Shown here: piece after piece, positions 438 to 57,103 of the stretch
Layout: each line of letters begins with the position of its first letter
Numbering within the stretch: the first letter of the stretch is position 1
From: Eledone cirrhosa
Taxonomy: Eukaryota
NCBI GenBank assembly: GCA_964016885.1
Contig: OZ024743.1
Location: 29,884,001 to 29,948,000, forward strand
Direction of reading: 5' to 3'
DNA length: 64,000 bases
Translations under genes and position numbers: made by a program
Notes under the pieces: model-generated
Database searches by the model: none
Told to the model about the DNA's origin: nothing
Seen by the model: only the letters and a program-made list of their open reading frames with translations

Positions 438-471
<34 letters not shown>

Positions 472-531
472 TATTAAATATAATTATATATATATAAAAT
501 AAATGGAAACTATATTTATAAAACCATATTT

Positions 532-590
532 ATTTTATTATATATATTTCAAGGGTACCAAGACATTGGTACGCTTTCATCAGATAAAAT
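532..590 (-). ncRNA. Minimal type I hammerhead ribozyme
   Basis: Minus strand: attttat CTGATGA aagcgtacca-atgtct-tggtaccctt GAAA tatata TA ataaaat. 7-bp stem I, paired stem II, palindromic stem III, AUA site. Confidence 0.85.
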
Positions 591-719
591 AAAAAGTTTG
601 TTTTATAAATAGAGACATACCCATGAAAATCATACCTTATCTGTTGGAAATTCACTGGAAATTCAACCGATACAGTATGATTTTCATGTGTATGTCTCTA
701 TTTATAAAACACACTTTGT

Positions 720-780
720 ATTTCATATGATGAAAGCGTACCAATGTGTCTTGGTACCCTTGAAATATATATAATAAAAT
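720..780 (+). ncRNA. Degenerate hammerhead (core ATGATGA), inverted partner of 532-590
   Basis: atttcat ATGATGA aagcgtacca..tggtaccctt GAAA tatata TA ataaaat. Confidence 0.6.
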
Positions 781-915
781 AAATATGGTTTTATAAATAT
801 AGTTTCCATTTATTTAATATCATTGAATATTTACTCCAGTAACTTGTTGAGTGCTCTAAATCAGTTATAAACATTTATATTTGTCGGACTTCCAACAAAT
901 TAAATACTCCGTCTA

Positions 916-917
<2 letters not shown>

Positions 918-1004
<87 letters not shown>

Positions 1005-1090
1005 ATATATGTATATATGTATGTATGTATGTGTGTATGTATGTATATAACCTCATACACACAGACAAACACACACACATATATCTATAC
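918..1090. repeat. (TA)n/(TG)n/(CA)n microsatellite; representative of dozens across the window
   Basis: Directly visible. These tracts explain the many YIYI/HTHT/CVCV ORFs. Confidence 0.98.
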
Positions 1091-2037: not shown

Positions 2038-2490
2038 CCTATATATATATATAAAGATTTACATATGCACAAACTAGACAAAGTGACAGATATATATGTG
2101 CTTTGGCAACCATTCATGATGTGGCTCAATGAAGAATTAATAAATTAAATAATATACTATAATATACTATAAAGCAATATACTATAAAGTATGCAATATA
2201 CTATAAAGTATGTCCATAGAATCATTTGATAATATATATACACCATTTCCTCTCCCACTTAGCATAATTAACCACACAAAAAAATCAATTAGACCAGGCT
2301 ATAAGATTAAAAGGCACCTATGAAGAAATAGTAAATAAATAAACGACAGCAATCTCTTCGCGGTCAACCGCCATAGAGTTTTTACCCAACATTTCAACAG
2401 CACGTGGAAATCGATTAAATATACAGTCAACCATACATAATTAGGTATAAATTAAAGTTAGAAGAAATGCTCATACACATACCAGGATTA

Positions 2491-2572
2491 TGTCCCTACC
2501 CTCAACTTTCGATCGCATTTTGATATATCCTATTAAGGATAAAATCTCGAGCTTCGAACTCATCAGGAGACA
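2491..2572 (-). ncRNA. Type I hammerhead with long stem II (stem III mutated)
   Basis: tgtctc CTGATGA gttcg...cgatc GAAA gttgagg GTA gggaca. Confidence 0.6.
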
Positions 2573-3237
2573 AACTCGTTAGGACAGATTATTTTCTAAA
2601 GTGGTCCCCGCCAGACACGAATTCAAAATGGTTAAGAATTGTGTCGTAGCAGTGGTCATGTCAGAAAGAATGTGATTGGTTGCTTACGGCGAGTGGGTTG
2701 GTACCTAATTGTGTATGCTTGACCGTATATTTAATCGATTTCCACGTGCTGTTGAAATGCTGGGTAAAAACTCTATGGTGGTTGGCCGCGAAGCGATTGC
2801 TGTCGTTTATTTATTTACTTTTAATCTTATAGCCTGGTCTAATTGATTTTTTGTGTGGTTAATTATGCTAATTGGGAGAGGAAATGGTGTATATATATTA
2901 TCAAATGATTATATGTACATACTTTATAGTATATTGCTCTGATTATTTAATTTATTAATTCTTCATTGAGGCACATCGTGAATGGTTGCCAAAGCACATA
3001 TATATGTGTGACTTTGTCTAGTTTGTGTATATGTAAATCTCTATATTTAATAATCTCACATAAGGTTGAGATGCAATTTGGGCAATATCGGGCTGCGTTT
3101 TCTAGCAACCAACCCACTCGCCGTAAGCAACCAATCACATTCTTTCGAACTTGACCTCTGCCACGTCACAATTCTTAGCCATTTTGAATTCGTGTCTGGT
3201 GGGGACCACTTTAGAAAATAATCTGTCCTAACGACTT

Positions 3238-3319
3238 TGTCTTCTGATGAGTTCGAAACTCGAGATTTTATCCTTAACAGGATATATCAAAATGCGATCG
3301 AAACTCGATGGTAGGGACA
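3238..3319 (+). ncRNA. Type I hammerhead with long stem II
   Basis: tgtctt CTGATGA gttcg..attttatcct-taac-aggata..aaaat..cgatc GAAA c-tcgatg-G TA gggaca. Confidence 0.7.
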
Positions 3320-3789
3320 TAATCCTGTTATGTGTATGACCATTTCTTCTAACTTTAATTATACTTAATTATGTAAGGTTGACCGTATATTTAATCGATT
3401 TCCACGTGCTGTTGAAATGTTGGGTAAATATTCTATAGCGGCTGGCCGCGAAGAGATTGTTGTCGTTTATTTATTTACTATTTCTTCACAGGTGCCTTTT
3501 AATCTTATAGCCTCGTCTAATTGATTTTTTGTGTGTTTAATTATGCTAATTGGGAGAGGAAATGATGTATATATATTATCAAAGGATTATGTATATATAT
3601 ATAAACAAGGAGACAGAGAGACGACAAGAGAGAGAGAGAGCGGTACATAACTAACGAATTTCGAATGATATAGGATTTGCCGGTGAAATTAGGAATATAA
3701 GAAAAGAGTAAAAGGGTAAAAAAAAAGTCACACATTTTTGGTTTTTGCTTCTAGAATATTTCCTTCATAAATAAACGCATAGACAATGT

Positions 3790-13536: not shown

Positions 13537-13608
<72 letters not shown>

Positions 13609-13762
13609 TACAGGTACACATACATATATGTACGCATCAGTTTAGCGGACGCTTATTATAGCGCCCGCTTTGTTCGTTTGTAAACAAACTGAACAGCCTG
13701 AATTTATGCCGCACGGTGTTAAGGCAACCACGTCACCTTTTTGTTCAACACTGACACAGGAA

Positions 13763-13803
13763 CGATGTACTAGTTTCAAGCTTGTTAGCTATCATCAGCA
13801 CCG
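13763..13803 (-). ncRNA. Minimal type I hammerhead, array copy 1
   Basis: cggtg CTGATGA t-agct-aaca-agct-t GAAA ctag TA catcg. Palindromic actagt stem III, GUA site. Confidence 0.8.
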
Positions 13804-14040
13804 GATACCCATCTGCCAGGTAGTTGAACGTTCGAAAGTATATACTTTCCTTATGAAAATTAACGGCTGAGCAGCCTAATTTGCATATCGAGTGAGTTAA
13901 ATCGGTCAGGCGCACCGAAAACGATGAGTTGTAATAAAATGAAAACGAAATTTCATTTATCACTCTTAGTACGGCACTTACTTAAATTTAAGTATGTATG
14001 TATACGTACATACATATATGTATACAGACGTACAGTAGCA

Positions 14041-14084
<44 letters not shown>

Positions 14085-14237
14085 TACAGGTACACATACA
14101 TATATGTACGCATCAGTTTAGCGCCCGCTTATTATAGCGCCCGCTTTGTTCGTTTGTAAACAAACTGAACAGCCTGAATTTATGCCGCACGGTGTTAAGG
14201 CAACCACGTCACCTTTTTGTTCAACACTGACACGGGA

Positions 14238-14280
14238 ACGATGTACTAGTTTCAAACTTGTTAGCTATCATCAGCACCGT
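14238..14280 (-). ncRNA. Minimal type I hammerhead, array copy 2
   Basis: acggtg CTGATGA tagctaacaagttt GAAA ctag TA catcgt. Confidence 0.8.
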
Positions 14281-14516
14281 ATACCCATCTGCCAGATAGT
14301 TGAACGTTCGAAAGTATATACTTTCCTTATGAAAATTAACGGCTGAGCAGCCTAATTTGCATATCGAGTGAGTTATATCGGTCAGGCGCACCAAAAACGA
14401 TGAGTTGTAATAAAATGAAAACGAAATTTCATTTCTCACTCTTAGTACGGCACTTACTTAAATTTAAGTATGTATGTATACGTACATACATATATGTATA
14501 AAGACGTACAGTAGCA

Positions 14517-14600
<84 letters not shown>

Positions 14601-14753
14601 TACAGGTACACATACATATATGTACGCATCAGTTTAGCACCCGCTTATTATAGCGCCCGCTTTGTTCGTTTGTAAACAAACTGAACAGCCTGAATTTATG
14701 CCGCACGGTGTTAAGGCAACCACGTCACCTTTTTGTTCAACACTGACACGGGA

Positions 14754-14796
14754 ACGATGTACTAGTTTCAAACTTGTTGGCTATCATCAGCACCGT
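14754..14796 (-). ncRNA. Minimal type I hammerhead, array copy 3
   Basis: Same as copy 2, with one stem II substitution. Confidence 0.75.
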
Positions 14797-15032
14797 ATAC
14801 CCATCTGCCAGATAGTTGAACGTTCGAAAGTATATACTTTCCTTATGAAAATTAACGGCTGAGCAGCCTAATTTGCATATCGAGTGAGTTAAATCGGTCA
14901 GGCGCACCAAAAACGATGAGTTGTAATAAAATGAAAACGAAATTTCATTTCTCACTCTTAGTACGGCACTTACTTAAATTTAAGTATGTATGTATACGTA
15001 CATACATATATGTATAAAGACGTACAGTAGCA

Positions 15033-15096
<64 letters not shown>

Positions 15097-15233
15097 TACA
15101 GGTACACATACATATATGTACGCATCAGTTTAGCGCCCGCTTTGTTCGTTTGTAAACAAACTGAACAGCCTGAATTTATGCCGCACGGTGTTAAGGCAAC
15201 CACGTCACCTTTTTGTTCAACACTGACACAGGA

Positions 15234-15276
15234 ACGATGTACTAGTTTCAAACTTGTTAGCTATCATCAGCACCGT
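15234..15276 (-). ncRNA. Minimal type I hammerhead, array copy 4
   Basis: Same as copy 2. Confidence 0.8.
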
Positions 15277-15514
15277 ATACCCATCTGCCAGATCGTTGAA
15301 CGTTCGAAAGTATATACTTTACTTATGAAAATTAACGGCTGAGCAGCCTAATTTGCATATCGAGTGAGTTAAATCGGTCAGGCTCACCGAAAACGATTAG
15401 TTGTAATAAAATGAAAACGAAATTTCATTTCTCACTCTTAGTACGGCACTTACTTAAATTTAAGTATGTATGTATACGTACATACATATATGTATACAGA
15501 CGTACAGTAGCATG

Positions 15515-18330: not shown

Positions 18331-18846
18331 CACACTACTGGATGGTCCAGGACGAAGTGGTGATTTTTCCCTTCAGCAGGTTCTTCTTCATGTTAAATAA
18401 TTCGGGCAGAGAGGCTTGGCGTGGAGCCGGATGTCAGATGGACCCCTTGGTTCAGTCAAGATGTCAATGATGCCAATCTGTGCGAAAAAGGAGCCCTTTA
18501 TATTGGAGAAGGCACTTTCACATTATTACAATAGTAGCACATACATGTTAAGTGAATGGAACTTTACAACAAATAAGCTCTCTTACAACATATTTAGCAC
18601 TGTTTTGCTCGATCTTTAATCTACGGATTTCCAACCATACACCGACCCACACACACATATATATATACACTCTGGCGTAAATGTGTCAATCCCCCCCCCC
18701 CCACATATATATATATATATATAGGAGGTGAGTTTTATTGTAGTACAATAAAGCAATGCAGATATCGGATAAGAAGCACTCTACAGTTTGTAGGACTGGA
18801 GTATGCATAATATAAGATCAAAAGATGGTTAAAGGAGTTCCATATA

Positions 18847-18913
18847 TTTTATTATGCGCATTTCAAAAACAAACATCATCATGCAATAATATTTGTGTTT
18901 TCATCAGATAAAA
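18847..18913 (-). ncRNA. Minimal type I hammerhead
   Basis: Exact reverse complement of 19039-19105. Confidence 0.85.
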
Positions 18914-19038
18914 CAGGAGAACATGATATGAAGGCTAAAAAACACTTGTGGATAGTGCAGTTTTAAATCAACATGACATGTTGATTTAACACTGCACTAT
19001 CCACAAGTGTTTTTTAGCCTTCATATCATGTTCTCCTG

Positions 19039-19105
19039 TTTTATCTGATGAAAACACAAATATTATTGCATGATGATGTTTGTTTTTGAAATGCGCATAA
19101 TAAAA
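19039..19105 (+). ncRNA. Minimal type I hammerhead
   Basis: ttttat CTGATGA aaac-acaaatattat-tgcatg-atgatgtttgt-tttt GAAA tgcgca TA ataaaa. Confidence 0.85.
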
Positions 19106-19137
19106 TATATGGAACTCCTTTAACCATCTTTTGATCT

Positions 19138-19265
<128 letters not shown>

Positions 19266-19358
19266 ATATATATACACACATACGTAAATTTGCCAGAATG
19301 TACATAATATCTAAATGAAAAGCGATCGATAAAAAAATGTCAGTCAGAGAACCAAATA

Positions 19359-24730: not shown

Positions 24731-27700
24731 TTACGGATACATACTCAGAATAGGCCGATTCACTCGGGCCGTTCTTGCTTCTCTCACCCATCTTTCAACA
24801 AAATGCTGGGAAGAGAGCACTTCCCTCTCTACTCTGATTTTCCTTTTCAAATGAAATTTGAAAAAGTCAATCAGAGCATCACGGAAGAGTTAAGTGCTCG
24901 TCTTCAGCCCTTTCAAACGTGTCCACCATACTATCTCTTTCGCCATGGCCACCAGACAGATAAAAACTGCCTGGCCTTCCCGGCTAAAGGAAGACGGCGG
25001 GGCAATCCTCACAATGGACTCAGATGATAGCCGGATCCGTCCTACACGCGACAGCAGGTGTTCCACATAAACCGACAAGTCAGCAATTTTCGGACACTGG
25101 ACGAGTGCGTGCAGGACGGTTTCGTCGCCCTGCGCGCATCTCGGACATGCCCGGCTGACGGCACCTCCATGCCTGTAGAGTTTATCCCAAACTGGCAAAG
25201 CTCCTCGGTAGCACTGCCAGACCAGAGATTTCCGGAAGTTGTCCATAGGCCCCGGCCCGAAAGTTCTTCCGAGAGATTGGCTCGTTGATTTTCGTCGACG
25301 CCTAGAGTTTCCCCAAGTACGTCGTCGCTCTTCCCCTCCACTAATCCTCTATAGAACGCCGAGGTGGAGTTTCCACCGATCACATTGCCCGATTGGTCGA
25401 GGGCTGTGAGCGCCTGAAGACATTCCAGTCTCCAGGCGCTCCCTCTCGGTCTTCGCTTCACCCAGGACTGCCGCTCCGTCAAGGAAACGAGCTGGGGAAA
25501 TACGTGTCTAGCAAACGGCAACCACACCTGATCACCGTCGAGGAAGAGGTGGAGATGTCGTAGCCTGAGCGTGTGTCTGCGCATCATCAGCCCCGGCATA
25601 CCCAGCCCTCCACGTAGCGGGTGTTGACAGCAGATGGACCGCCTGACTATCGGAGCGCGTCTCTTCCACAAAAAGCGAAAGAGCAAACGCTCCAGCGCAG
25701 TCAGGCGGGGCTTAGGACAAGGTACGACGGTCAGGCGGTAGCAGATGACAGACGCGATGTACGCATTAGCCACCTCCACTCGACCTTTCAGGGATAGCTT
25801 CCTCTCCGCCCATTTCTGGGTTTGAGAAGCCACCCTTCAGGTCACCTCGTCCCAGTTTTTGTCCGTCTGGAGGTCCGGACCGAACCAAACCCCTAGCAAT
25901 TTAACCGATCCGTCCGTCCAGCGTCCGACGACGCTGTTGGACGGCAGGACCTGCTTCTCCAGGTGCCGAGCTGCAGGCCCACTGACTTTTCCTGGTCGAT
26001 CATTGCTCCTGTCACCGCTTCGTTATCTCTTAGTGTAGTGCCGATCGCCTAGATGTGTTTGGCGTTCGACACAACTACGGTGACATAGTCCGAATATACT
26101 GACACGGATAGTCCGCATCCTAGTTCGCGCGGGACGCCCCTCAACGTCTCCAGTTTGTGCAGTAATGGCTCGAGAGTCAATACGTACAAGAGGGACGAGA
26201 GGGGACATCCTTGGCGGACCGAGCGCATGATGTTGAACGGTTCCGAAAGGTGACCATTCACTCTCTTCACAGAGCAGATGTCGCTGTGCATGGCAGCGAT
26301 CCAGCCTCTGAAGACGGGCCCAAAGCCAGCCGCCTTCAGGACTGCCGCTAGGTAACGATGGTCGACCCTATCGAAGGCTTTCGACTGATCTAAATTGATC
26401 AAGGACCCACCCGTGCCAGGTTCCCTAGCTACCCTCTCTACGATGTATCGCATGAGGTTGAGGTTGTCGTGGATGGATCTGTTGGGAATGGCGCATGTCT
26501 GCGCCTCTCCCATCAGACCAGCAACGACAAGCGCCAATCTCTTTGCTCGCACCTTGGCCACAATCTTGAACTCTGTGTTTAGCAGAGTTATTGCCCTGAA
26601 ATTATCTATGTTATCCCCCTTGTTCGGATCCTTTCTCAGCACCGCTACAGCTCCTCGGCTCACAGAGCTGGGAATACTCCCGTTCTGTTGTCAGTTGCAG
26701 TAGACGTCCGTCAAGAGGCCTTCGAACAAATCTGGCATCTATACGTAAAGTTCATAGGGCAGACCATTCAAACCAGGCGATTTACCCATTGTGCAGCCAG
26801 CTATTGCCTCCCGTACTTCAGCGGCTGTTATCGCTTTTCGCAACACTCCGCCTCAGTGGCCGAAAGCCGCGGCAGTCCGTCGAGATAGACACTAAAGTCC
26901 ATCCTTCGATCCGGCCCGCCGCTGCCCCCGAACAGCTGTGATATGTGTCGCTGAAAAGATTCACACATTTGCCCGGGATCGAGTAGCATGCGCCCGTCGT
27001 CGTCCACCAAAGACCGGATCGTGGCTTTGTTGCCACGACGCGCCTCCGCCACTCGGGCCCATTGAACGGCTTTCGTCCCCTCGTGTCTGAGAGCACATAC
27101 CCTAGCTCTGACAACTCAGCCTTCGTGCTTTAATTTGAAGAATTGGTCAAGGGCCAATTTCGCCGCAAGTACGTCGGTCGCGATGCCTTTGCTAAGCGCC
27201 TCGTCTAATTTTCTAACTAATTCTCCCTCTGTTCAGTGTCGCTGAAAGGCTTCACACATTTGCCCGGGATCGAGTAGCATTGAGCGGCTTTCGTCCCCTC
27301 GTGTCTGAGTGCACGCACCCTAGCTCTGACAACGCAGCCTTCGTTCTTTCCATTGAAGAATTGGCCAAGGGACAATTTCGCCGCAAGTACGTCGGTCGCG
27401 ATGCTTCTGCTAAGCGCCTCGTCTAATTTTCTAACTAATTCTCCCTCTGCTCTATTTTTCTCTATCGCTAAAGCCTTACTAAAACTAATGGACTCTATTC
27501 TAATTGCTGTTTTCAGAGCAAACCACCACTTGTTGTTGACGATGGCCCCCGTCAACGCCCGCTTAACTAGTTCGCTAATCCGGTCTCTGTAGGCCTTGCG
27601 CGCTGGTGAGGACGCGTTTAGCTTCCAGTAGCCGGGTCCTTGTCTATGAAGCCTATCTAAGTCAAGGACACAGATCATAAATTTGTGGTCTGTGTAGCTG

Positions 27701-28365
27701 ACTATCTTGAATTGTGGACAGCCTATGCTAGACCTATCTATTTCCCCACAGAATTCTCTATCTAGGTATGATCTGGATGACCCTATGCGATTTGTCCAAG
27801 TCCACATTGGCACATTCGGGAAATCCAATCGGTACCTGTCAGACAGTTCAAAACGCCTGAGCAGGTTGATGGGACTCTTGCACCCTCCTCCCGTATCCGC
27901 TAATCCCACACAGTCCCAGCGTGCATCTAAGATCCCGTTCCAGTCGCCCACTAACACTAAGGAGCGGGACGTTCCAAGAAAGTTCTCCAGACGCCGGAAG
28001 AAATCAGGCCGCACTGCTCCTGTTGGGGCATAGACGGCCACTAGCCTGAAAGCTTGCCCGTCTCTGCTTGTCACGTCCAGCACCACCAACTTATCTTCTG
28101 GGTCCAGGAAGATGGCCCGTATGGCGAGATCCAAACCTCTCCGAAAAGCACAGGAACTTCTCCCCCCCGATCCCGGACGGCTGGTAGATGCGTACACATC
28201 GTAGCCGCCGAAGATCGGTGCGAAGGCTCGTGTTTCGGAGATTCTGGTCTCGCTGCTGGCCACTACATCTATGTTTAGTGACCTGAGGTCGTTGAGCAGG
28301 TGGCCCTGCTTCCATGACGACCCCAATCCACGCGCATTTATGCTGCCTATTCTGAGTGAGGTCAT
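24731..28365 (-). pseudogene. Tx1-like ORF2 (AP endonuclease + reverse transcriptase + CCHC), frameshifted
   Basis: MTSLRIGSINARGL, GDWN, TDH, QSKAFDRVDH, RQGCPLS, YSDY, CPRC..ETVLHALVQC. Confidence 0.92.
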
Positions 28366-28398
28366 GTTGAAATGGAGTGGAAAGATGGGAAAGACCAC

Positions 28399-30330: not shown

Positions 30331-30553
30331 GTTTATTTCAAAGAAAGTTTTTTTTGATAATTATAAAAGTTTAAATTTCGGGCTCAAGGCCCAAATTTTT
30401 TTGAGTGTCCTTTTCGGACATAAGTGAATGTGCACTTATATAGAGTTAACAATACAAATTTTCCATAAATGGCAATTTTAAACAAACGAAAACAACAAAC
30501 CTTTGCGGAGCTCACGATGATACGACTTGCTACGTAGGTCGCCAATAATAATG

Positions 30554-30599
<46 letters not shown>

Positions 30600-30600
<1 letters not shown>

Positions 30601-31670
30601 CATGTTCCACAAGAGGAGTGATGTCGATAGACTCTACCTAAGGAGATCTGAGGGTGGAAGAGGTCTTATCAGCATAGAGGACTGTGTTCAGATGGAGAAA
30701 AACAACCTATACAAATACGTGACCTATAGTAAGGAGCCAATGCTCAGAGCTGTACTGAAGGAGGGGACAGTAGGCCAGGGGATGTCCAGGGAGGAAATAA
30801 CATCAAGGAGGAAGAGCAGCCTTAAGGGAAAACCCCTTCATAGTACCTTCTTTGAGAAAACTGAATTTAGAGATCCACAGACATGGAACTGGTTGAGAAG
30901 AGGAGACCTCAAAAAGGCTACAGAAGGAATGCTAATGGCTGCGCAGGAGCAGGCCCTCAAAACGAAGTAGTTGAAGCACCATATCTACAAGGAGGAGGCC
31001 AGCCCATTGTGCAGGATCTGTGGAGAGAGAGAGGAGACTGTGGCTCACATTGTGTCCGAGTGTAAACACCTAGCCCAGACCCACTATAAGGGCTGGAGAC
31101 ACGATGTGATGGGCAGGGTCATCCACTGGCACCTGTGCAAAGTAAACAATCTACCACATTCTGAGAAATGGTATGAGCATAGGCCAGAGGCGGTGATGGA
31201 GAACAATCAGGTGAAGGTGCTGTGGGATTTTAGGATACAGACGGACAAAAAACTGGAACACAATAGACCTGACCTGGTGGTTGTGGACAAAGAAAAAAGA
31301 TCGTGCCTGATTGTGGATGTGGCCTGCCCGTTCGACACGAGAGTGCAAGAGAAGGAGAGGGAGAAAATTAACCGATACCAGGACCTAAAGTGGGAGGTGA
31401 AAAGGATTTGGAACTGCCATGAAGTCAAAGTGATCCCGATTGTCATAGGCGCACTGGGGACTATCTCCAAAAGTTTCCAGGGATGGTTAAAGAAAATCGG
31501 CCCCTTCACGCTTTTTGGAACGCTTCAAAAGGCATGCTTGCTTGGAACAGCAAGAACCCTCCGATACGTCCTGAATATCTGAGGCTGCAGGTAGTGGCTT
31601 GATATTCAATCCAACGGACTTTCCAATTAACCAACATCAATGACTGAGATTCAAGGAATAATAATAATAA
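30600..31670 (+). mobile_element. 5'-truncated R4/Dong-like LINE (RT C-terminus, CCHC, restriction-like endonuclease) in (TAA)n
   Basis: RLYLRRSEGGRGL, CRICGEREETVAHIVSEC, RHD, WD..TD..NRPDLVV..IVDVACPFD..EKINRY. One stop codon; (AAT)n on both sides. Confidence 0.92.
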
Positions 31671-31852
31671 TTGTTTCTACTTTTGGAACAAGGCAAGCAA
31701 ATACCCAGTGTATTACTGGTAGTTTATTTTATCGAGCCCGTAAGGATGAAAGGCAAAGTTAACATCCGGGGGATTTGAATTCAGAATGGCAAGGGCCATA
31801 ACTCTACGTGTCAAAGCATGGCGTCTGACCCTCTACCGATACTGCCAATCCA
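31668..31852 (-). mobile_element. tRNA-derived SINE
   Basis: Same family as 10768-10957. Confidence 0.85.
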
Positions 31853-31857
31853 ATAAT

Positions 31858-33818
31858 CCTCGATATGAGTGTTTAAATGTCGAACCTAAACAGTTCGAAT
31901 AACGGTGAAAAAGAGACTGGAACGTCATGTGAAAGACTCTCACCCAGCAAGTGCTTTGGCCCAGCAGCAGGAACCTGGCTGTCGTCCAAATACTGCTGGT
32001 GCTGGAGGAAGAAGAAGAAGGAAAGGGACAAGGACCAACTGGACGAAAGAATTGAATATAACTGTCATGAAATGTTACCTGAAGAGTAACCTCATGGAAA
32101 AAGGCTATAGGAAACGGATGCATAACACCTGGAACGAGATTGGTCTATTTAAATTAGATAAACAAAAATTGGCCGGGCATGGCTCGGGTAATAAGAACTA
32201 ATGTATGGATAAGCGAGTTGAAACTGGAAGAACTGAGCAGAGAGATTAAGTTGGAAATGGAGAGTGGAGTATGTCAGGCAAACGAGTCAGTGGGAAATGA
32301 AAGTGAATAGGTTGAGAGAGCTGAGGAAGCATCCGAAGCAGACAATGATCTGAATGCTGAAATAAATAACATCTGGAACAAAGATACGGCCATTGAGGAA
32401 ATGAATCCTGACGGGCTAGGACAAGATTTGTTTGACATCCTGAACTTAGTGGTAGATGAAATGAATAATGATAGTGGAAAACCTATGAACCTAAGATTTG
32501 TAGACAGGAAAAAGTTAAAAGAAACAACAGCTAAGGTAAACAAAGTCATCCCATACCTTGAGGCGAGGAACCTTCACCAATGCAACAATATCCTCAAAGC
32601 AACTCCAAATGTGGTGAGGAAATTACTTGGCATAAAAACGAGAGGAAACAACAAACAAGAAAGATCAGAACTTTGGTGAAAGAAACGACTGAATAGTCAA
32701 ATCAAGGAAATGAGAAAAGACATTGGAAAGCTTGAGTCCTTACTGAATGGGACATTACAAAACTAAAGAAGGATTGGAAATAAAATACAAAACTAGGGGG
32801 AAAAAGCTAAATATTATCATAGAGGACCTGAAGCAAGGCATTGTTGCAAAAGGTGCAAAGATTAGGCCGTATGAGAACAGAGTCAGTCAGTATAGACAGA
32901 ACCGCATGTTTGAAAACAACCAGATGTTGTTTGGACAGCTTGAAGGGAAAGAAACAGGCAACGACGTGATCCCTGAGGCGGAACAGACTAAGACATTCTG
33001 GAGAGGAATATGGGAGCAGGATGTTGAACATAATAGTCAGGCAGTGTGGATTGAGACAGTTCAAAAGGAGATTAGTGAACAAGCACACCAACAACCTGAT
33101 TTGAGTATCACAGTTGAAACTCTTAAAGGGCAGGCCAAAAAACTAGCCAACTCGAAATCACCAGATGGTGTGTAGGGGTATTGGATTAAACATATAACAT
33201 CCCTCCACTCGAAACTGACAACCATGTTCAATGACTGGTTGATATCGGTTGATGTACCACAGTTCTGGTAATGAAAGTCCGAATCAAGGGTAATGATGTT
33301 ACCAACTATAGGCCTATCACATGTCTGTTCGTAATCTGGAAACTGTTAACAAGCATTGTGTCTGAGGATGTCTACCATCATAAACAACTTGTGACCCGAC
33401 GAACAGAAAGGATGCCGAAAGAAGTCCTGTAGTACAAAAGACCAGTTACTTATTGATAAGATGGTAACGAGGAACTGCAAGAGGAGACACACTGGTCTTG
33501 CCATGGGATGGATAGATTACAAAAAGGCATTCGACATGGTATCTCATTTTGGATACCCAAAAGCCTGGAGATCTTCAAGGTGGCAGATAACATCAGACAG
33601 TTGTTGAGCAAAAGTATGAAGTCCTGGGAAACAGAGTTAACATCGGGTCGAGAATCTTTGGGAAGCGTGAAGATCAAGAGAGGTATCTTCTAGGGAGATA
33701 GTTTGTCCCCTCAGCTGTTTGTCCTTGCCCTGATACTATTTGCTTGATATTCATTTCAACAAACTTTCCAGTTAAATAACATCAATGACTGAGACTCAAA
33801 GAACAATAATAATAATAA
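31858..33818 (+). mobile_element. Internally deleted R4/Dong-like LINE (N-terminus and RT joined to the 3' UTR)
   Basis: [50 protein letters not shown]. Jumps at about 33740 to a 3' UTR matching 31597-31660. Confidence 0.88.
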
Positions 33819-36996: not shown

Positions 36997-39900
36997 ATGG
37001 CCAATATAAGAGTTGGATGTGTGAACGTACGCGGCCTGGGGATGCCCTGGAAACAGGGCAAACTCTTAAACGACCTCAGGTCGCACATATGGATGTGGTA
37101 GCCATTTGCGAGTCCAGGATCCACAGCGAGCGACAGCTGGCCCCCATCTTCGATGACTTTGAGATCTACGCATCTCTCTGTCAACCGGGGGTGGGGGCGG
37201 AGTTGCCGTTTTGCTGCGGAAACACCTGGGTCTCGTAACACAGACGGTACATCTGGACCCGGAGGGTCGACAGGTGGTCCTAGATGTTAACGGTAGTGAA
37301 GGTGAAGCCTTCAGGCTGGTGGCCGCATATGACCCATCCGGGACACCGCGGCCAGATTTCTTCAAACGTCTAGAGACTTTTCTGGGAACGTCCCGCTCCT
37401 TGCTTTTAGTGGGGGACTGGAATGGAATCCTAGATGCACGTTGGGACTATGTGGGAGCATGACCCGATAAAGGGGGGTGTAACAGCCTCAAACAGTTAAT
37501 CGACCGATTTGACCTTGCCGATAAATATCGACTAGATTTTCCGACTGCGCCACTGTGGACGTGGACTAATCGTAGCGGAACATCTAGATCGTACCTAGAT
37601 AGGGTTCTAGTTAGAAATAAGGATAGGGACTTGTTAAGCTGTCCATAAATGTTAATGGTTGCCTATTCAGATCACAAACTAGAGACCTGCATGGCCAACC
37701 TTGATAGAACCCAGAGACAAGGACCCGGCTACTGGAGGCTGAACTTGTCATTACCGACTAGCAAAGCCTACAGTAGCATTTTAGTTAACCAGCACTTGAC
37801 AGGGGCCATTGTCAACAACAGATGGTGGTACTCTCTCAAGAGGGCAGTTAGATTAGACTCGCTAGTTTTTAGTAAAGAATTAGCGTTAGATAGAAATAGA
37901 ACCGAGAAGGAACTGGTAGATAAAGTAGAAGAGGTAATTAGAAGTGGCAACGTAGCCAGCGTGCTAGCAACGAGAACGGCCTTGGACCGTTCTTCGACGC
38001 AAAGCACGAGGGCTGAGTCGTCAGAAGCAAAATACGTGCTCAGGGAAACGAGGGAGCCAAAGCTGTTAGCTGGGCCCGAGTGACGGAGACAAAAAGTGGC
38101 AACAAGTCCACGATTCGGTCTTTGAAGGACCAAAACAGACGCGTGATACGTGAGACGAAGCAGATGTGTGCGGCTTTTCAGCGGCACTTTGCTCAACTGT
38201 TCGGGAGGGGCGGCGCGCCGGGAGGGGCTATGGATTTCGGTCCATACCTCGAGGGCCTACCGCGACTCTCGGACGGCGAGGCAAAATTCTGCGAAAAGCC
38301 GATATCAGCCGCTGAGATAGGGGACGCGCTGAGCCAATGCGGCAAAGGCAAATCACCAGGTCTCGACGGTCTACCCTACGAATTTTACGTAGCAATGCCG
38401 GACTTATTCTCCGGTCTCCTGGAAGCGGTTTACTGCAACTGGCAACAGAACGGGAGAATTCCCAGTTCTGTAACCGGGGTCGTGGTCACACTAATCAGGA
38501 AGGACGAGAATAAGGGGTATAACATAGGCAACTTCCGGCCGATAACTCTGCTAAACACAGAGTTAGAGATTTTGGCCAAGGTGTTGGCAAAGAGGCTGGC
38601 GCTTGTCGTCGAGAACCTGATGGGAGAAGCGCAGACATGCGCAATCCCGACCAGATCCATACACGACAACCTCCACCTCATGCGATACATCATAGAGAGG
38701 GTAGGGTGTAAACCCGGCTTCGGTGGGGCTCTGATCAACTTGGATTAGTCTAAGGCTTTCGATAGGGTTGACCATCGTTACCTGGATGCAACACTCGAGG
38801 CGGCAGGCTTCGGACCCGTGTTCAGGGGCTGGATTGCTGCAACACAACAGCAACATCTGCTCAAGGGTCAAGTGAACGGCTACCTCTCGGAGCCGTTCCA
38901 TATTACGCGATCCATTCGACAGGGATGCCCTATCTCCTCCCTTATGTACGTACTGACTCTCGAGCCACTACTGCGGAAGTTGGAGCTATTGCAGGGCATC
39001 CCTCTGGAACCGGGACTGCGGAAAGCGGCGTCGGCCTACTCCGACGACGTGACAGTAATGGTGTCGAGCGCCTTGCAAATCGAGGAAGTCGGCACCTTAC
39101 TGAAGGAATACGAAAGTTTCACAGGAGCGAAGCGGAACCGGGACAAGTCCATCGGTTTGCAACTCGGATCGTGTAGAGGCAAACCGATGCCTTCCGATGG
39201 CGTCGTCGGACGCTGGACCGAAGGACCGGTAAAGCTGCTCGGGGTCTGGTTTGGTCTGGACCTCCAGGTGGAGAAGAACTGGAACGAAGTGACAGCCAAG
39301 GTGTTTGTACTCACCCCGAAGTGGGCCGAGGGCAAACTATCCTTGAAAGGTCGAGCGGAGATGGCGAACACTTTTATAGCGTCCGCCATCTACTACCGTT
39401 TGACCGTCGTGCCTTGTCCAGCCAAAACGGTCGCCAAAATGGAGCGCGCGCTCTTCCAATTCCTTTGGAAGAGGCGGGCTCCTTTGGTGAGAAGATCCAT
39501 CTGCTGCCAACACCCTTCTAACGGAGGGCTGGGGTTGCCCTGGTTGACGATGCGCAAACACGCGCTCAGGCTGCGGCATCTCTACGGACTTCACCGGACA
39601 ACCGGTGTGGGCCCCGTTCGTGAGGCGAGCCTTCCCACGACTCGTCTCGTTGACCGAGCTGCAGTCCTGGGTCAAGCAAAATCCGAGGAAAATGGGCGAC
39701 TGGCACATCGAATGTGCTCAGGCGCTCACAGCCCTCTGGCAGGCGGACCCTGCGATCAGTGGAGACTCCACTTCGTCATTCTATAGAGGGTTGATCCGCA
39801 GCAAGTGTGACGACGTGCTCAGTGAAACTCTAGGCGTAGCGGAAGATGAACTGGTCAGTCTGTTCGGTAGGACCTTCCGCCCGGGACCGATGGACAACTT

Positions 39901-40416
39901 CCAAAAGTCCCTGGCCTGGCAGTGCTACCGAGGAGCTCTACCAGTTCGAGACAAGCACTACAGACATGGGCGCCCGGGCAGGGACCCTGCAAAAAAGATC
40001 TGTCCGAGGTGTGTGCGAGACGAAGAAACAACGCGCACGCATTCATACACTGCCCGGGCGTCACTGACCTGTTGTGCTATGTAGAACGACTATTGTCGCG
40101 GGTGGGACCAATCCGGTTGAACACCGAGTCCATTGTCATGATCAAACCGCCAACCTCCTTTAAAAACGAAGGAGAGGCGGTTTTCCTCTGTGTGATAGCT
40201 ATGGCGAAAGAGGTTGTTTGGTGGACAAGGTTGAAAGGGCTGAGGTCAGACACCTTTCTCTTCGGCCAACAACTGATTCTTTTTTTCAAATACCACTTTG
40301 GAAGAATAATCAGGATGGAGAGAGAGGTGCTGTACCCCAGCAAGTTTTATGAAAGGTGGGTTAAAGTGGCGAGAATGACCCGAGTGAATGGGCCTTCTCT
40401 CTATATCAGCCTGTAG
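36997..40416 (+). pseudogene. Tx1-like ORF2 (APE + RT + CCHC), frameshifted
   Basis: MANIRVGCVNVRGL, GDWN, SDH, KSPGLDGLP, RQGCPIS, YSDD, CPRC. Confidence 0.92.
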
Positions 40417-44708: not shown

Positions 44709-45908
44709 TTTAGAGCGCTGAACTAAATATTCCTTCGGTATTTTATAGTAACTTCTATTGTCGATTCTCACTAAGGTGAAGTGAATGTATACTATATCGT
44801 TTTGCTCTGTGAAGGAAATCTTTGATTTTGCATCTCTGACAATGTTCTGTGCTAACAGATGCTCCTTGATGAACGGAAGGAAATCTCTTTCTTTTCAAGA
44901 TACATGTGCAAAGTTGTTCGATTACGTGCATAATTTGAACATCTCTACCTAGTATTTGAGATTGCAAAATACTTCCTTCCTTGTTGAGTTGTCCATGTGT
45001 AAGGATGACTGATAGTTATTCTTGTAAATTTTAGTTATTTTCCTCTGTTACTTGATTTCGTACTGAAAAGGCTACCCTTGTTCCTTTAACCGAATAGATT
45101 GCCGGGGTAGAAACCATGTTACATCCATCCCGAAGTAAATATACACCACTCCAACAAACATATATATCATGGTGGTGTATATTTACTTCGGAATGTATGT
45201 ATGTGTGTTTGGCTTGTCCAATGATTGTGTTTGTGTTTAACACCAATGAATGTATGTGTGTATATGTATGAGCATGTATGTTTGTATATGTGTGTCGGTG
45301 TATGATGGAAGAATATTGTTAAACTTAATTGGAAGGGTAATTACAGGAATAGGGGTGGTTTAAGAAGCTGTCGAAATAACTCCGTCGCGCTACTGACGCA
45401 TTATCACATTGTCTTACCAGATGATTGTAACACAAAACGAAGTAGTAGTTACGCTACATGGATCAGAACAAATCATGTGAGCTGGACCGCTAGGAAACAT
45501 GGTTTCTACACCCGCAATCTATTGGGTTAAAGGAACGAGGGTAGCCTTTTCAGTACGAAATAAAATAACAGAGGAAAAGAACCAAAATTTACAAGAATAT
45601 CTATCAGTCATCCTTACACATGGACAACTCAACAAGGAAGGAAGTCGTTTGCAAGCTCAAATACTAGGTAGAGATGTTCAAATTATGCACGTAATCGAAC
45701 AACTTTGCACGTGTATCTTGAAAAGAAAGAGATTTCCTTCCGTTCATCAAGCAGCATCTGTTAGCACAGAAAATTGTCAGAGATGCAAAATCAAAGATTT
45801 CCTTCACAAATCAAAACGAGATAGTATAAAGTCACTTCATCTTAGTTTAGAATCGACAATAGATGTTACATTAAAATACCGAAGGAATATTTAGTTCAGC
45901 GCTCTAAA
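44709..45908. repeat. Large inverted duplication (arms 44709-45120 and 45496-45908)
   Basis: About 410-bp arms, clearly homologous with scattered mismatches; 375-bp spacer. Confidence 0.9.
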
Positions 45909-49843: not shown

Positions 49844-49874
<31 letters not shown>

Positions 49875-49958
49875 GTATATATCCAGACAGCTTCCAAAAA
49901 TAATGGTCGCATCTAATAGGGTACGTCAAAATTATTTATAAAACTGTTTATATATTGT

Positions 49959-50062
49959 ATTTTGTCCGATGAAGGCATACTATATTTTTATTTGGTATCC
50001 CTGAAATATGTATAATGAAATAAATATGGTTTTATAAATATAGTTTCCATTTATTTAATATC
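49959..50062 (+). mobile_element. Degenerate copy of the 497-918 family, hammerhead core CCGATGA
   Basis: Shares taaatatggttttataaatatagtttccatttatttaatatc with 780-821. Confidence 0.7.
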
Positions 50063-50096: not shown

Positions 50097-53000
50097 TTTA
50101 TTTACCATAAAGGTATAAAAAGAAGGGACAAATACAAAGGAGGAGTTTACATAAAACCGAGTAAAAAGGGTATAAAATGAAAATAATCAAAAACAACCTC
50201 AAAAGGGAAGGGACGTGATGGGGTTTGCACCCCCCCCCCCGAAAAAGTGTGCAATCCTTTGCCCAGGGAGCACATGGAGAAGGTGCTCCCCTCTCCTTCA
50301 CTTCTTTACCTACAGGATGGTATACAGAGAAGGCCCATTTATACGAGCCATTCTCGCCACTATCACCCAGCTGCCTGTGGCCAAGCACCTCTCTCTCCAT
50401 TCTTATCCTTCTTCCGAAGTGATATCGGAAGAAGTAGACCAGACTATGGCCAGAGAGGAAGTTGCCTGACCTCAGACCTTTCAATCGTGTCCACCAAACA
50501 ACCTCTTTCAACATGGCTATTACGCACAGAAAAACCGCCTTTGCTTCCTTTGTGAAGAGGGCAGGCGGTTTGATTGTCAACACGGACTCGGCGGTCAATC
50601 GAATCGGCGCCACCTGCGAGAGCAGTCGTTCGGCGTAGCCCCACAGATCAGCCACGCCCGGACAGTGCACCAATGCGTGCGCAACGGTTTCTTCGTGACG
50701 TACGCATCTAGGGCAAATCTTTTTCGAGGGATCCCTGCCCGGGCGCCCGTGTCTGTAGAGCTTTTCTCGAACGGGTAGAGCCCCCCGGTAGCACTGCCAG
50801 GCCAGTGACTTCTGGAAGTTGTCCATTGGTCCCGGGCCGAAAGTCCTACTGAACAGGCTGGCCAGTTCGTCCTCCTCCATGTCCAGCGACTCTCCAAGGG
50901 TGTCATCGCCCCTGCTAGCCACAAGCTCTCTATATAATGACGAGGTGGATTATCCACCGCTTGCCAGAGAGCCCTGAGCGCCTGGGCACACTCAGTGTGC
51001 CAATCGCCCAGTTTTCCGGATCTTTGCTTGACCCAGGACTGCAGCTCGGTGAGCGAGACGAGTCTCGGAAAGGCTCGTTTCACGAACGGAGCCCACACCG
51101 GTTGACCAGTGAGGAATACCTGTAGGTGCCGTATTCCTTAATGCGCGCCTACGCATCGTCAACCACGGCATCCCCAGTCCTCCTTTCGAAGGTTGTTGGC
51201 AGCAGATGGATCTTCTCACCATAGGAGGGCGCTTCTTCCAAAGAAATTGAAAGAGCATGCGTTCCATGGTGGTGAGTGTTTCCTTAGGACAAGGCACGAC
51301 AGTCAGGCGGTAGTAGGTGCTGGATGCTATGTAAATGTTCGCCACCTCCGTCCGACCTTTTAGGGACAGCTTACACTTGGCCCATTTCTGGGTTAGTGCA
51401 AACACCTTGTTCGTAACCTTGCCCCAGTTCTTTTCCACCTGGAGGTCCGGTCTAAACCAGACCCCAAGCAACTTCATCAGGCCCTCCGTCCAGTGTCCGA
51501 CGACACCGTCGGGAGGCATCGGTCTGCCTCTCCACGTTCCGAGTTGCAGCCCGATGGATTTTTCCCGGTTCAGTTTCGCTCCTGACAAGCTTTCGTATTG
51601 CTCCAGTAAGGTACCGATCACCTCGATATCCGAGTCGGTCGATACCATTACTGTCACGTCATTGGCGTAGGCCGACACCGCTTTGCTCAATCCTGGTTCC
51701 AGGGGGATACCCTACAACAACTCCAACTTCCTCAGTAAAGGCTCGAGAGTCAATACGTACAAAAGTGAGGAGAGAGGGCACCCCTGTCGAATGGATCGTG
51801 TGATTTCGAACGGCTTCGAAATGTAGCCGTTGACCTTGATCCTAGAACAGATGTGGTTGCTATGTAAGGCAGTGATCCAGCCTCTGAAAACAGGACCGAA
51901 CCCAGCCGCCGCTAGCACCGCATCCAGGTAACCATGCTCGACCCTATCGAACGCCTTAGACTGATCCAAGTTGATCAGGGCCCCACCGAAGCCGGGTTTG
52001 TTGCCAACCCTCTCTATGATGTATCGCATGAGGTGGAGGTTGTCGTGAATGGAACTGGATGGGATAGCACATGTCTGCGCATCTCCCACCAGGCCACCCA
52101 CGACTAGCGCCATACCCTTTGCTAACACTTTGGCCAAAATCTTTAACTCTGTGTTTAGCAGGGTTATGGGCCGAAAATTATTTATACTATCCCCCTTGTT
52201 CTCGTCCTTCCTCACCAGCGAGACTACGCCCTTGGCTACAGAACAAGGAATTCCCCCGTTCTGCTGCCAATTGCAGTAGACTGCCTCGGGGAGTTCGGAA
52301 AAGAAGACCGACATTGCTAAATAAAGTTCGTAAGGTATACCATCGAGACCTGGAGATTTGCGTCTGCTGGATTGGCTCAGCGCATCTCCGATCTCATCAG
52401 CCGAGATTGGTCCCTCGAAGGACTGTGCCTCTTCGCTCGAGAGACGCGGCAGGCCGTCGAGGTATGGACCGAAATCCACGTCCCCGCCCGGACCCTCGCC
52501 TCCCCCGAACAATCGGGCAAAGTGCCTTTGAAAGGCCTCGCACATCTGCTTAGGCTCCCGGATCACCCGTCCATCCTCGTCTTGCAAAGACCGGATGGTG
52601 GATCGATTTCCACTCTTAGCTTCTGTCACGTGGGCCCAGCCAACGGCTTTGGCCCCCTCATTACCTAGAGCACGTATTTTACTTCGAATGACGCAGCCTT
52701 CGTGCTTTGCATCGAAAAACTGGTTCAAGGCCGTCCTTGATGCCAGCACTCTGGCCACATCTTCGCTCTTGATTGCCTCTTCTAATTTACCTGTTAATTC
52801 TTTCTCGTTCCTATTCCTATCGGCAGCTAACATCTTGCTATAACTTATTGATTCTGTTCTAATCTCTCTTTTGAGAGATGCCCACCATCGGTTGTTGACG
52901 ATTGCACCCGTCAACCTCTCCTTAACTAATCTGCTAATCCGGTCTCTGTAAGCATCTTTTGCCGGTAAAGACAAATTAAGTTTCCAGTAACCGGGACCCT

Positions 53001-53622
53001 GTCTATGTCTTTTCTCGAGATTGACTACGCAGGTCACTAATTTGTGATCTGTATAGCCAACCGTGAGCATTTCTGGACAGCTTAATATGTCCCTATCCTT
53101 ACTTCTAACTAAGAATCTATTTAAGTACAATCTAGATTGACCACTGTGGTTCGTCCAAGTCCAGGTTGACACAGTTGGAAAATCTAGTCGATATCTATCG
53201 ACCAAGTTAAAACGGTCGAGTAACCCCTTGAGGCTGTTACAACCCCCTCTATTAGGACATGCTCCTGCATAGTCCCAACGTGCATCTAGGATGTCATTCC
53301 AATCCCCCGCTAGAAGCAGGGAACGCGACGTTCCCAGAAAAGTCTCCAGACGCTGGAAGAGGTCGGGTCGTTCAGCTCCGAAAGGGGAGTAGACGGCGAC
53401 CAGTCTCAAGGCCGCACCTCCTCTACTGCCAACGTCTAGCACCAACAAACGACCTTCCGCGTCCGAGTGAACAACCTGTACGGTGAGACCCAGGTGTTTT
53501 TCCAGCAGTACGACAACCCCACCCCCACCTCCAGGTGGACAGAGAGATGCATGCACCTCAAAGTCATCGAAGGTAGGGGCCAGCTGCCGCACGACGCTGA
53601 TCCGAGTCTCACAGATAACCAT
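50097..53622 (-). mobile_element. 5'-truncated Tx1-like LINE (ORF2 from within APE to the 3' end)
   Basis: 650-aa open segment with ETR, GDWN, TDH, SPGLDG, SKAFDRV, RQGCPLS. Then YAND, frameshifts, CPRC. 3' end aaataaagaaa followed by (TA/TATC)n. Confidence 0.93.
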
Positions 53623-54110
53623 GTCTAAGACAAAACCTATATATTTGCTAACATAGGTATACATCTGTATATATATGTTGGTAGATATACTAATTCTTTA
53701 TAATTATCTCCAAATTATTTTGTTGAGCAAAAATTTGCCAAAACTGCTACTAGAGTTCATAGTAATAGTTCGGCTACTATCTTCTTAACACCCCACTCCT
53801 CACTGAGTAACCTCGATGTTACATGATTGATTCTTTTGAATTTGCCACCGACCAAGTAGGCAGTGATTTCTTCAATGTCTTGGAATTTAGTCCACACTTG
53901 CTTTTTTCCATCCACTGAATTATTTTTGTATAAGTTCCCTGTGTCCACGCATCACCTGGGAACTTAGCTGAGAATAGACTTCCCGATGACGAAAGGCCTT
54001 CTCCTTGCGTTCCATTCGAAAACAATGTTTATTCCCTTTCAGAAACTAAGTAGTTGGAGTGAATGAAAATTTAGTAAGCATGTTAATTTTTATAATTTTG
54101 TTATTTTACG

Positions 54111-56442: not shown

Positions 56443-56554
56443 CATATATTTAGTAATAATAATAAATGTGAAGAGGTCTCGAATATATATATATATATAT
56501 ATATAAAATAAAGTTAAATAAAAGTCAAATGATTAAAATTTAGCTTCGTTTATT

Positions 56555-56609
56555 ACTGCTATATATATTTCAGTGACAGCCATCTTTGGCTGTGACCTCT
56601 TCAGGCAGT
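56555..56609 (-). ncRNA. Minimal type I hammerhead
   Basis: Reverse complement of 56769-56823. Confidence 0.88.
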
Positions 56610-56768
56610 TTGAATTAGTATGGTATAGACAAGTACATATGTTGTTTAGGTGTATGATATTGTCAATACTCTGATATGCCCAGTTCCTTGTTGGGTTGTT
56701 AATTCACTGGGGAACTGGAGTCATATCACTAAACAACATATGTACTTGTCTATACCATACTAATTCAA

Positions 56769-56823
56769 ACTGCCTGAAGAGGTCACAGCCAAAGATGGCT
56801 GTCACTGAAATATATATAGCAGT
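56769..56823 (+). ncRNA. Minimal type I hammerhead
   Basis: actgc CTGAAGA ggtcacagcca-aaga-tggctgtcact GAAA tatata TA gcagt. Confidence 0.88.
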
Positions 56824-56969
56824 AATAAACGAAGCTAAATTTTAATCATTTGACTTTTATTTAACTTTATTTTACACTACTCCGGAGTAACCAAACCAAC
56901 CTGCGCACTTCGTCGAGTGCTCCAGCCTGCATACTGAGGTGTTGGTATACAACCAACATAAACTCAAAA

Positions 56970-57103
<134 letters not shown>

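Follow-up and report, generated by a model that had tools for sequence, protein, structure and literature searches.

Three head-to-head palindromes set in (TA)n tracts of the Eledone cirrhosa genome are, as judged from their sequence, pLTRs of Hydra-type Penelope-like elements (PLEs); the clade is placed by motifs, and the PLE origin itself is virtually certain. The three are labelled E1 (497-918), E2 (18723-19145) and E3 (56504-56970) by their positions in the window, i.e., the whole 64,000-nt stretch of DNA that was analysed. Short Hydra-type insertions of this kind are likely built anew, with both cut ends of a (TA)n target priming at two hairpin-set sites and the resulting cDNAs being joined head to head.

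Layout of the three palindromes

A sequence-only reading of the window had ascribed one layout to the three elements, and all three are indeed head-to-head palindromes set in (TA)n at these positions (Table 1). As it had also proposed, the arms are joined 5' to 5', with 142/150 (E1), 168/169 (E2) and 144/144 (E3) of the aligned inverted-repeat columns being identical, and only one arm is extended by a tail—about 90, 84 and 96 nt long, respectively—that runs into (TA)n. The placement of the microsatellite was right in part: (TA)n does follow the tail but is not confined there, flanking each element on both sides. The description of the elements as unrelated holds at the BLASTN level only (no E1/E2/E3 cross-matches at E<=1e-3), as they have a hairpin motif in common and their parent proteins are 40–69% identical over the aligned segments. 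The outer end of the E1 inverted arm is a few bases shorter than in most copies, and the apparent spacer of E3 is a portion of the inverted arm that is missing from the direct arm.

Table 1. Features of E1, E2 and E3, in window coordinates
Element	Feature	Position	Strand	Basis
E1	Left (TA)n target remnant	438..496		
E1	Inverted arm, pLTR about +5 to +173	497..659	-	
E1	Intact hammerhead motif, TATATA palindrome in helix III	583-539	-	motif scan
E1	Head-to-head junction, private to this copy	660..663		
E1	Direct arm, from pLTR about +18	664..828	+	
E1	Tail-side hammerhead, mutated core (727-733) starting with A, not C	727-773	+	
E1	Tail, stretch of parent 5' UTR from site A to site B	829..918	+	
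E1	Hairpin A, ACTCC...GAGTGCT, bulged stem	833..855	+	
E1	Right (TA)n	918..1049		
E2	(TA)n after tail	18705..18723		
E2	Tail	18723..18806	-	
E2	Hairpin A	18775..18802	-	
E2	Direct arm, from pLTR +3	18807..18974	-	
E2	Direct-arm hammerhead motif, TGCGCA palindrome	18907-18853	-	motif scan
E2	Junction	18975..18977		
E2	Inverted arm, +3 to site A	18978..19145	+	
E2	Inverted-arm hammerhead motif	19045-19099	+	motif scan
E2	(TA)n at inverted arm	19138..19274		
E3	Left (TA)n	56483..56504		
E3	Inverted arm, site A to +1	56504..56726	-	
E3	Inverted-arm hammerhead motif	56604-56560	-	motif scan
E3	Base beyond +1, G on sense strand vs. C in parent	56727	-	
E3	Direct arm, 5'-truncated by about 75 nt	56728..56874	+	
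E3	Direct-arm hammerhead motif, CTGAAGA core	56774-56818	+	motif scan
E3	Tail, with hairpin A at 56879-56921	56875..56970	+	
E3	(TC)n then (TA)n after tail	56971..57023		

Other repeats are also found in the window. At 2279-3530 lies an older inverted repeat (93%), which has a rearranged centre and, near 2570 and 3240, hammerhead-like cores. The stretch 49850-50062 is a solo arm from a family related to E1 (81%); it meets (TA)n at site A, and its hammerhead core is mutated. The inverted repeat at 44770-45846 (351-nt arms, 94%) lies outside (TA)n, has no hammerhead match and may derive from a genuine DNA transposon. Three LINE copies, all broken, carry frames for an endonuclease and an RT at 24890-28398, 37649-40416 and 50098-53697, two of them in opposite orientation (72–81% alike), and a further LINE-like piece is seen at 30521-33175.

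Parent elements and their clade

The parents of E1 (locus L121), E2 (L186) and E3 (L196) are organised as pLTR+tail, ORF, long 3' UTR and pLTR+tail. In L186, an open 798-aa RT-EN frame lies between two direct pLTR+tail copies that are 3,710 nt apart; the L196 unit is 4,132 nt long, and the ORFs of L196 and L121 are broken but arranged as in L186. Direct pLTRs, an inverted pLTR and a one-sided tail are found in L121, L186, L187 and L196, and some E1 tails are preceded by a nuclease-like frame. The tail corresponds to the beginning of the parent 5' UTR, ending at a fixed point. The suggested origin from a Penelope pLTR plus tail is thus borne out, in that the pLTR and tail of the palindromes also flank the RT-GIY-YIG ORF of the parents.

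The modelled L186 protein (pLDDT 76) has TERT structures as all of its top seven fold matches. Pfam gave no RT match for the parent ORF, and a PDB sequence search likewise returned no identification, the homologues found carrying no name either; PF01541 (GIY-YIG) was weakly matched (E 0.005) in 2/16 family members, L186 not being one of them, and the signature residues of the C-terminal GIY-YIG endonuclease, LIYECK...YFG, R, E and N, are visible in the alignment. The hallmarks of the Hydra clade, as given in the available text of PMC8557442, are RWK, DKT in place of DKG, a CxCX5C linker, the absence of CCHH and CxxC/CxH around E and N. The CxCX5C linker is present in 3/3 parents, and the L186 nuclease has CNLC...E...N...CLH and no CCHH; small deviations are seen in the E2 parent (RWI, with DKT) and the E3 parent (RWK, with DKP in one broken copy). 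The Neptune clade, considered first, was dropped in favour of Hydra on these motifs. The target preference is also that described for the Hydra clade in the same available text, namely insertion into (TA)n: a run of (TA)4 or more lies at most 40 nt from the tail end in 66/66 E2 and 63/68 E3 copies. That text differs from the present families in giving element sizes mostly <3 kb, as a tendency (here 3,710 and 4,132 nt, the large units combining a long 3' UTR with linker insertions), and tails of 30–40 nt (here 84–96 nt).

The linker region of these elements is itself variable, with Asn-rich or low-complexity inserts between RT and nuclease (about residues 580–655 of the L186/L187 ORF, and also in L196), as in rotifer PLEs. 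A subfamily of E2 (L128, L132, L141, L148, L203, L213) has an approximately 220-nt tandem duplication in the 3' UTR just upstream of +1. A fourth Hydra-type family is represented by L198 (353-1249, minus strand), which differs from the others in the hammerhead-like core at its 3' end, where the hairpin pattern finds no match.

Fixed ends and variable centres

The tail sequences are abundant: exact occurrences in the 3.0-Gb genome number 9,344 for an E2 tail 42-mer and 2,029 for an E3 tail 38-mer, with 0 for the control in each case, and a search with the E1 tail gave 1,406 first-look candidates, of which 40 were scored. End statistics for E2 and E3 were taken from exact tail-pattern matches in positional order on one contig, with 70 regions per family; leaving out matches that had been collected as pairs (6 E2, 3 E3), L152 and L178, each the other end of a single insertion, and L236, with its three matches, gave 68 and 69 copies. 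These omissions disfavour long insertions and those with two tails, and the use of exact anchors shifts the samples towards young copies. The E1 sample consists of the 30 best tail matches minus L100, i.e., 29. All copy samples were anchored on the tail and hence cover tail-bearing insertions; full-length DNA queries, which return look-alikes and overstate uniformity, were kept out of the end statistics.

The tail stops at the same point, site B, in 66/68 E2 and 68/69 E3 copies, the remainder continuing into the 5' UTR, and an inverted arm that terminates at site A can be seen in 37/68 E2, 37/69 E3 and 12/29 E1 copies. Four contig sets, which may come from the same or a related sample and do not bear on expression, likewise have loose (TA)n ends at these two sites. 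Short palindromes account for 31/68 E2 and 34/69 E3 tail-bearing copies; the others comprise long direct arms and long inversions, together with solo arms and a small number of two-tailed insertions. The tail is present on both sides in L099, L111, L151 and L177, so that A-plus-B ends are the majority pattern and not a rule. The short palindromes have 27 distinct junctions in 31 copies (E2) and 30 in 34 (E3), with differences even among copies that are 98–99% identical.

These patterns agree with what the sequence-only reading had anticipated for retrotransposition products, namely a fixed tail end, an inversion point that varies from copy to copy and no constant target-site duplication. As to the last, candidate duplications of 10–36 nt were seen in 7/37 and 9/37 copies, many of them trivial and with (TA)n as flanks, and a TA duplication inside (TA)n is possible. 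Its notion of a 5' inversion survives in modified form: there is an inverted arm with a variable centre, but the inversion departs from randomness at both ends, the outer one being fixed and the inner one showing a hotspot at pLTR position +1. Similarly, derivation from the 3' end of a Penelope element needs to be amended, in that the 5' pLTR of the RNA is a likelier source of the short copies than a truncated 3' end. The centre was also considered as a natural hairpin with a flip-flop loop, and this was rejected for E2 and E3, whose parents have no such hairpin at +1.

A twin bulged hairpin

Both fixed sites lie immediately before a bulged hairpin. In all three families, site A is about 3–8 nt before hairpin A (ACTCC...GAGTGCT), and site B is about 3–7 nt before a related hairpin B (GCTCC...GAGC(A/G)CT), which is present in the parents only. 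The pattern of the hairpin pair has 865 genomic matches, as against 5 for the control, in many families and mostly followed by a similar ORF start. The predicted fold consists of RCUC, an upper stem, a loop, a two-base UN bulge, GAGY and RCU.

A metagenome set of 78 related loci, drawn from the best 80 of 517, displays the same signal: where enough upstream sequence is available, at least one hairpin is found upstream of the ORF in 22/26 loci and two in 16/26, with 0 on the reverse strand and a shuffle expectation of 0.16, and a downstream hairpin is present in 19/47. Pairing was assessed by anchored counts. Unforced upper-stem pairs are formed in 50/52, 42/50, 32/36 and 22/30 distinct metagenome instances, as against 1/53 and 9/52 in shifted registers, although these counts are not independent because the loci are related. 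In the octopus's own genome the corresponding figures are 28/35, 25/35 and 19/25, the unforced partner base being A with T in 20 cases, G with C in 13 and others in 2. Isolated single hairpins fold weakly (z -0.2 to -2.4). By these counts, the predicted hairpin covaries across marine Hydra-type elements. Thirteen further metagenome pLTR copies were available, of which six are cut by the contig end and one continues into the ORF; five of the other six stop 0–4 nt before the hairpin and one stops 83 nt before hairpin A. The hairpins probably position the start of reverse transcription. The literature searched, with few subscription papers and no Repbase, yielded no account, for PLEs, of a start hairpin in two copies or of a cap-derived G. 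One metagenome element (L373) has its own (TA)n run directly before hairpin B.

Relation between the two arms

The 5' reach of the inverted arm exceeds that of the direct arm by more than 10 nt in 19/37 E2 and 16/37 E3 copies, the reverse being true of 6 and 4, and in L103, L114 and L115 the inverted-arm sequence that is missing from the direct arm amounts to up to kilobases. Since either arm can extend further 5', neither is a copy of the other. At the same time, the arms of a copy are closely related: their distance is 1.0% within a copy vs. 4.7% between copies in E2 and 1.4% vs. 2.5% in E3. Variants present in both arms vs. one arm number 86 vs. 35 in E2 (28 copies), 38 vs. 46 plus 1 discordant in E3 (30 copies) and 35 vs. 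66 in E1 (30 copies, from a full-length query). Variants that recur are almost always present in both arms (15 vs. 3 in E2, and 10 vs. 1), with the three one-arm variants of E2 recurring twice each. The variant pattern fits both arms having been copied from one RNA, or from RNAs of one locus, that was copied twice; variants common to both arms, which are less marked in E3 and E1, are equally compatible with a fold-back or with gene conversion.

A hotspot at +1 and an extra G

Inverted arms end at pLTR 0/+1 in 17/37 E2 copies and at -2 to +5 in 11/37 E3 copies. Genome-wide, 2,502 E2 arms have a non-parental base before +1, as against 81 before the control position +18, the parent having C before both. 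Hand counts of this base gave G 49, A 12 and T 39 in the first 100 of the 2,502 E2 arms, G 19, A 33 and T 29 in all 81 control arms and G 31, A 12 and T 57 in the first 100 of 1,004 E3 arms. Set against the control, G is in excess over A (p=2.7e-6 in E2, 9e-4 in E3); against A+T the values are p=6e-4 and 0.32, the extra G being weaker in E3, and the T count before +1 is inflated because of joining to (TA)n. When judged by eye, G junctions are unexplained by the partner arm in 6/11 E2 and 3/7 E3 cases, the rest possibly reflecting microhomology. An internal GATATG match as the source of the extra G was rejected, as it accounts for 0/18 G junctions in two 30-locus samples; such a match is nevertheless present in L067, L068 and L071.

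The initiator consensus is BBCA(+1)BW, and the +1 of all three parents fits it. In L121, L186 and L196, the upstream pLTR begins 5' of +1, with more element sequence before it. Position +1 is a candidate capped transcription start, and a somewhat favoured one, because of the extra G, which is also known from capped L1 copies, and the initiator fit. The base at 56727 of E3 fits a cap-derived base but could also be part of the direct arm.

Hammerhead motifs

The window was scanned for a type-I hammerhead motif comprising stem I, CUGANGA, stem II, GAAA, a 6-nt palindrome, UA and stem I'. An outward-pointing ribozyme had been reported for every arm, and the motif is indeed present in 5/6 arms, as against 0 matches in each of 20 shuffled windows; the exception is the tail-side copy of E1, whose core is mutated. 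None of the 132 Rfam matches in the window at E<=1 is a hammerhead, and in the E2 parent pLTR Rfam gave neither a hammerhead nor a family for the hairpin, so that the ribozyme call rests on the motif scan and the hammerhead in the pLTR is a predicted ribozyme motif. Its short helix III with a palindromic loop is the form described for minimal PLE type-I hammerheads in the accessible part of PMC4209133. The same part of that work (Cervera and de la Pena 2014) reports opposite-strand hammerhead pairs 100–700 bp apart in Schistosoma, for which, unlike here, the origin and end rules are not worked out in it.

Both arms of the palindromes span the hammerhead cleavage site, which suggests that the template RNA is uncut by the hammerhead. 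Stopping of the arms at the hammerhead cut was rejected, as it applies to at most 1/37 copies per family. In non-LTR retrozymes, hammerhead units are tandem and head to tail, while E1–E3 are instead head to head. A retrozyme-like array does occur in the window at 13568-15300, where units about 476 bp long follow one another in tandem with (TA)n between them, and every unit has a minus-strand hammerhead with a CTAG palindrome (four motifs, at 13798, 14274, 14790 and 15270).

A proposed mechanism and its alternatives

In the proposed mechanism, a capped RNA would begin at +1 and be left uncut by the hammerhead. The RT-nuclease, perhaps as a dimer, would bind hairpins A and B and cut both strands of (TA)n. 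Each target 3' end would then pair with the U/A-rich bases before a hairpin and be extended, from site A or site B, in the direction of the 5' end of the RNA. The cDNA ends would be trimmed and joined, often via short matches. Priming on the 5' pLTR would give short run-off cDNAs and hence a short palindrome with a one-sided tail, whereas priming on the 3' pLTR would give long arms. Separate priming from the two cut DNA ends is, like the building of the insertions anew, quite probable in our judgment. The full account—two tandem bulged hairpins placing a dimeric RT-nuclease, both (TA)n ends copying the same capped RNA from two defined sites, a single rule thereby producing the tail, inverted pLTRs and MITE-like palindromes in their thousands, and the cap as the source of the extra G—is evenly poised between right and wrong.

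The nearest alternative is self-priming, whereby one cDNA, started at the tail end, turns back on itself and uses its own strand as template for the inverted arm, with the hairpin marking a cut or join point. It would account for the variants common to both arms and for several centres that are perfect fold-backs or hold short template jumps, and the available text of PMC3846280 proposes it for rotifer PLEs on account of junction palindromes. It is nevertheless unlikely, given that many inverted arms (those 19/37 and 16/37, with kilobases in three loci) contain sequence absent from the direct arm and that inverted arms have an extra G of their own; because of such overreach, fold-back of a single cDNA would need large later deletions. 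Long palindromes are prone to deletion, which lends something to a different idea, that whole palindromes are non-autonomous units copied by the PLE enzyme, with cruciform deletion varying their centres and gene conversion homogenising their arms. Short palindromes do form about half of the tail-bearing copies, and the best matches to a full-length query look uniform. Yet nearly all junctions differ even in near-identical copies, one-arm variants are hardly common between copies, long inverted arms begin at the same site A (L114, L138, L150), and hammerhead and tail derive directly from the parent, all of which makes unit copying very improbable.

The long inverted repeats, high copy number and TA on both flanks are also what true MITEs would display, i.e., DNA transposons with a TA target duplication—itself possible inside (TA)n—that had captured a hammerhead. 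The chance of this is close to nil: the termini are not mutual inverted copies, only one of them bearing a tail, there is no constant internal region, with centres differing per copy, and solo arms, 5'-truncated arms and arms running into an RT-EN parent exist. The contention that these palindromes are not DNA transposons is accordingly upheld by the one-sided tail, the per-copy centres and the continuity of the arms with RT-EN parents.

Comparison with other retroelements

The favoured reading of two separately primed cDNAs has its closest counterpart in Poseidon of Anolis (Frangieh et al. 2024, PMC11167929). As far as the accessible sections of that study go, both target strands are cut and extended in vitro, as proposed here, and there are two start sites with a tail between them; RNA is needed 3' of the start, the RNA template is uncut and a dimer is predicted, like our reading of the present families. 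The same sections point to differences: Poseidon belongs to another clade, starts in an AC-rich stem loop inside the ORF and primes without homology to the target, vs. the short TA match suggested here, and a duplicated signal comparable to the twin hairpin is not described in them.

A parallel can also be drawn with LINE-1, for which the portion of PMC11702581 at hand reports an extra, cap-derived G at full-length 5' junctions, as with the extra G here, and twin priming with a second priming event from the other DNA end, as proposed here. By the same portion, LINE-1 inverts without duplicating and at variable sites, whereas here the pLTR is copied twice and at fixed sites. Among PLEs, the inverted pLTR plus one-sided tail is already published, according to the available parts of PMC8557442 and PMC3846280. 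For EN+ PLEs, the latter (Arkhipova et al. 2013) has a head-to-head inverted pLTR with a tail on one end, an initiator-like sequence in the pLTR and a variable or absent target-site duplication, all as here. Its available part invokes self-priming on an antisense template or EN-mediated resolution, as against the two sense-template cDNAs favoured here, and differs from the present families in that ORF-less palindromes are the commonest product here. In what is available of PMC8557442 (Craig et al. 2021), there is no hairpin signal, second start site or cap signature of the kind seen here.

Implications

The making of the PLE tail and inverted ends is named in the available text of Craig et al. 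(PMC8557442) as needing mechanistic work. The covarying RNA signal, the candidate capped start and the open 798-aa ORF together make PLE end formation directly testable, and the proposed mechanism, if true, would show how a relative of telomerase picks its template boundary. For the genome at large, thousands of palindromes per family could be mis-annotated as MITEs, and these palindromes constitute a large source of potential double-stranded RNA.
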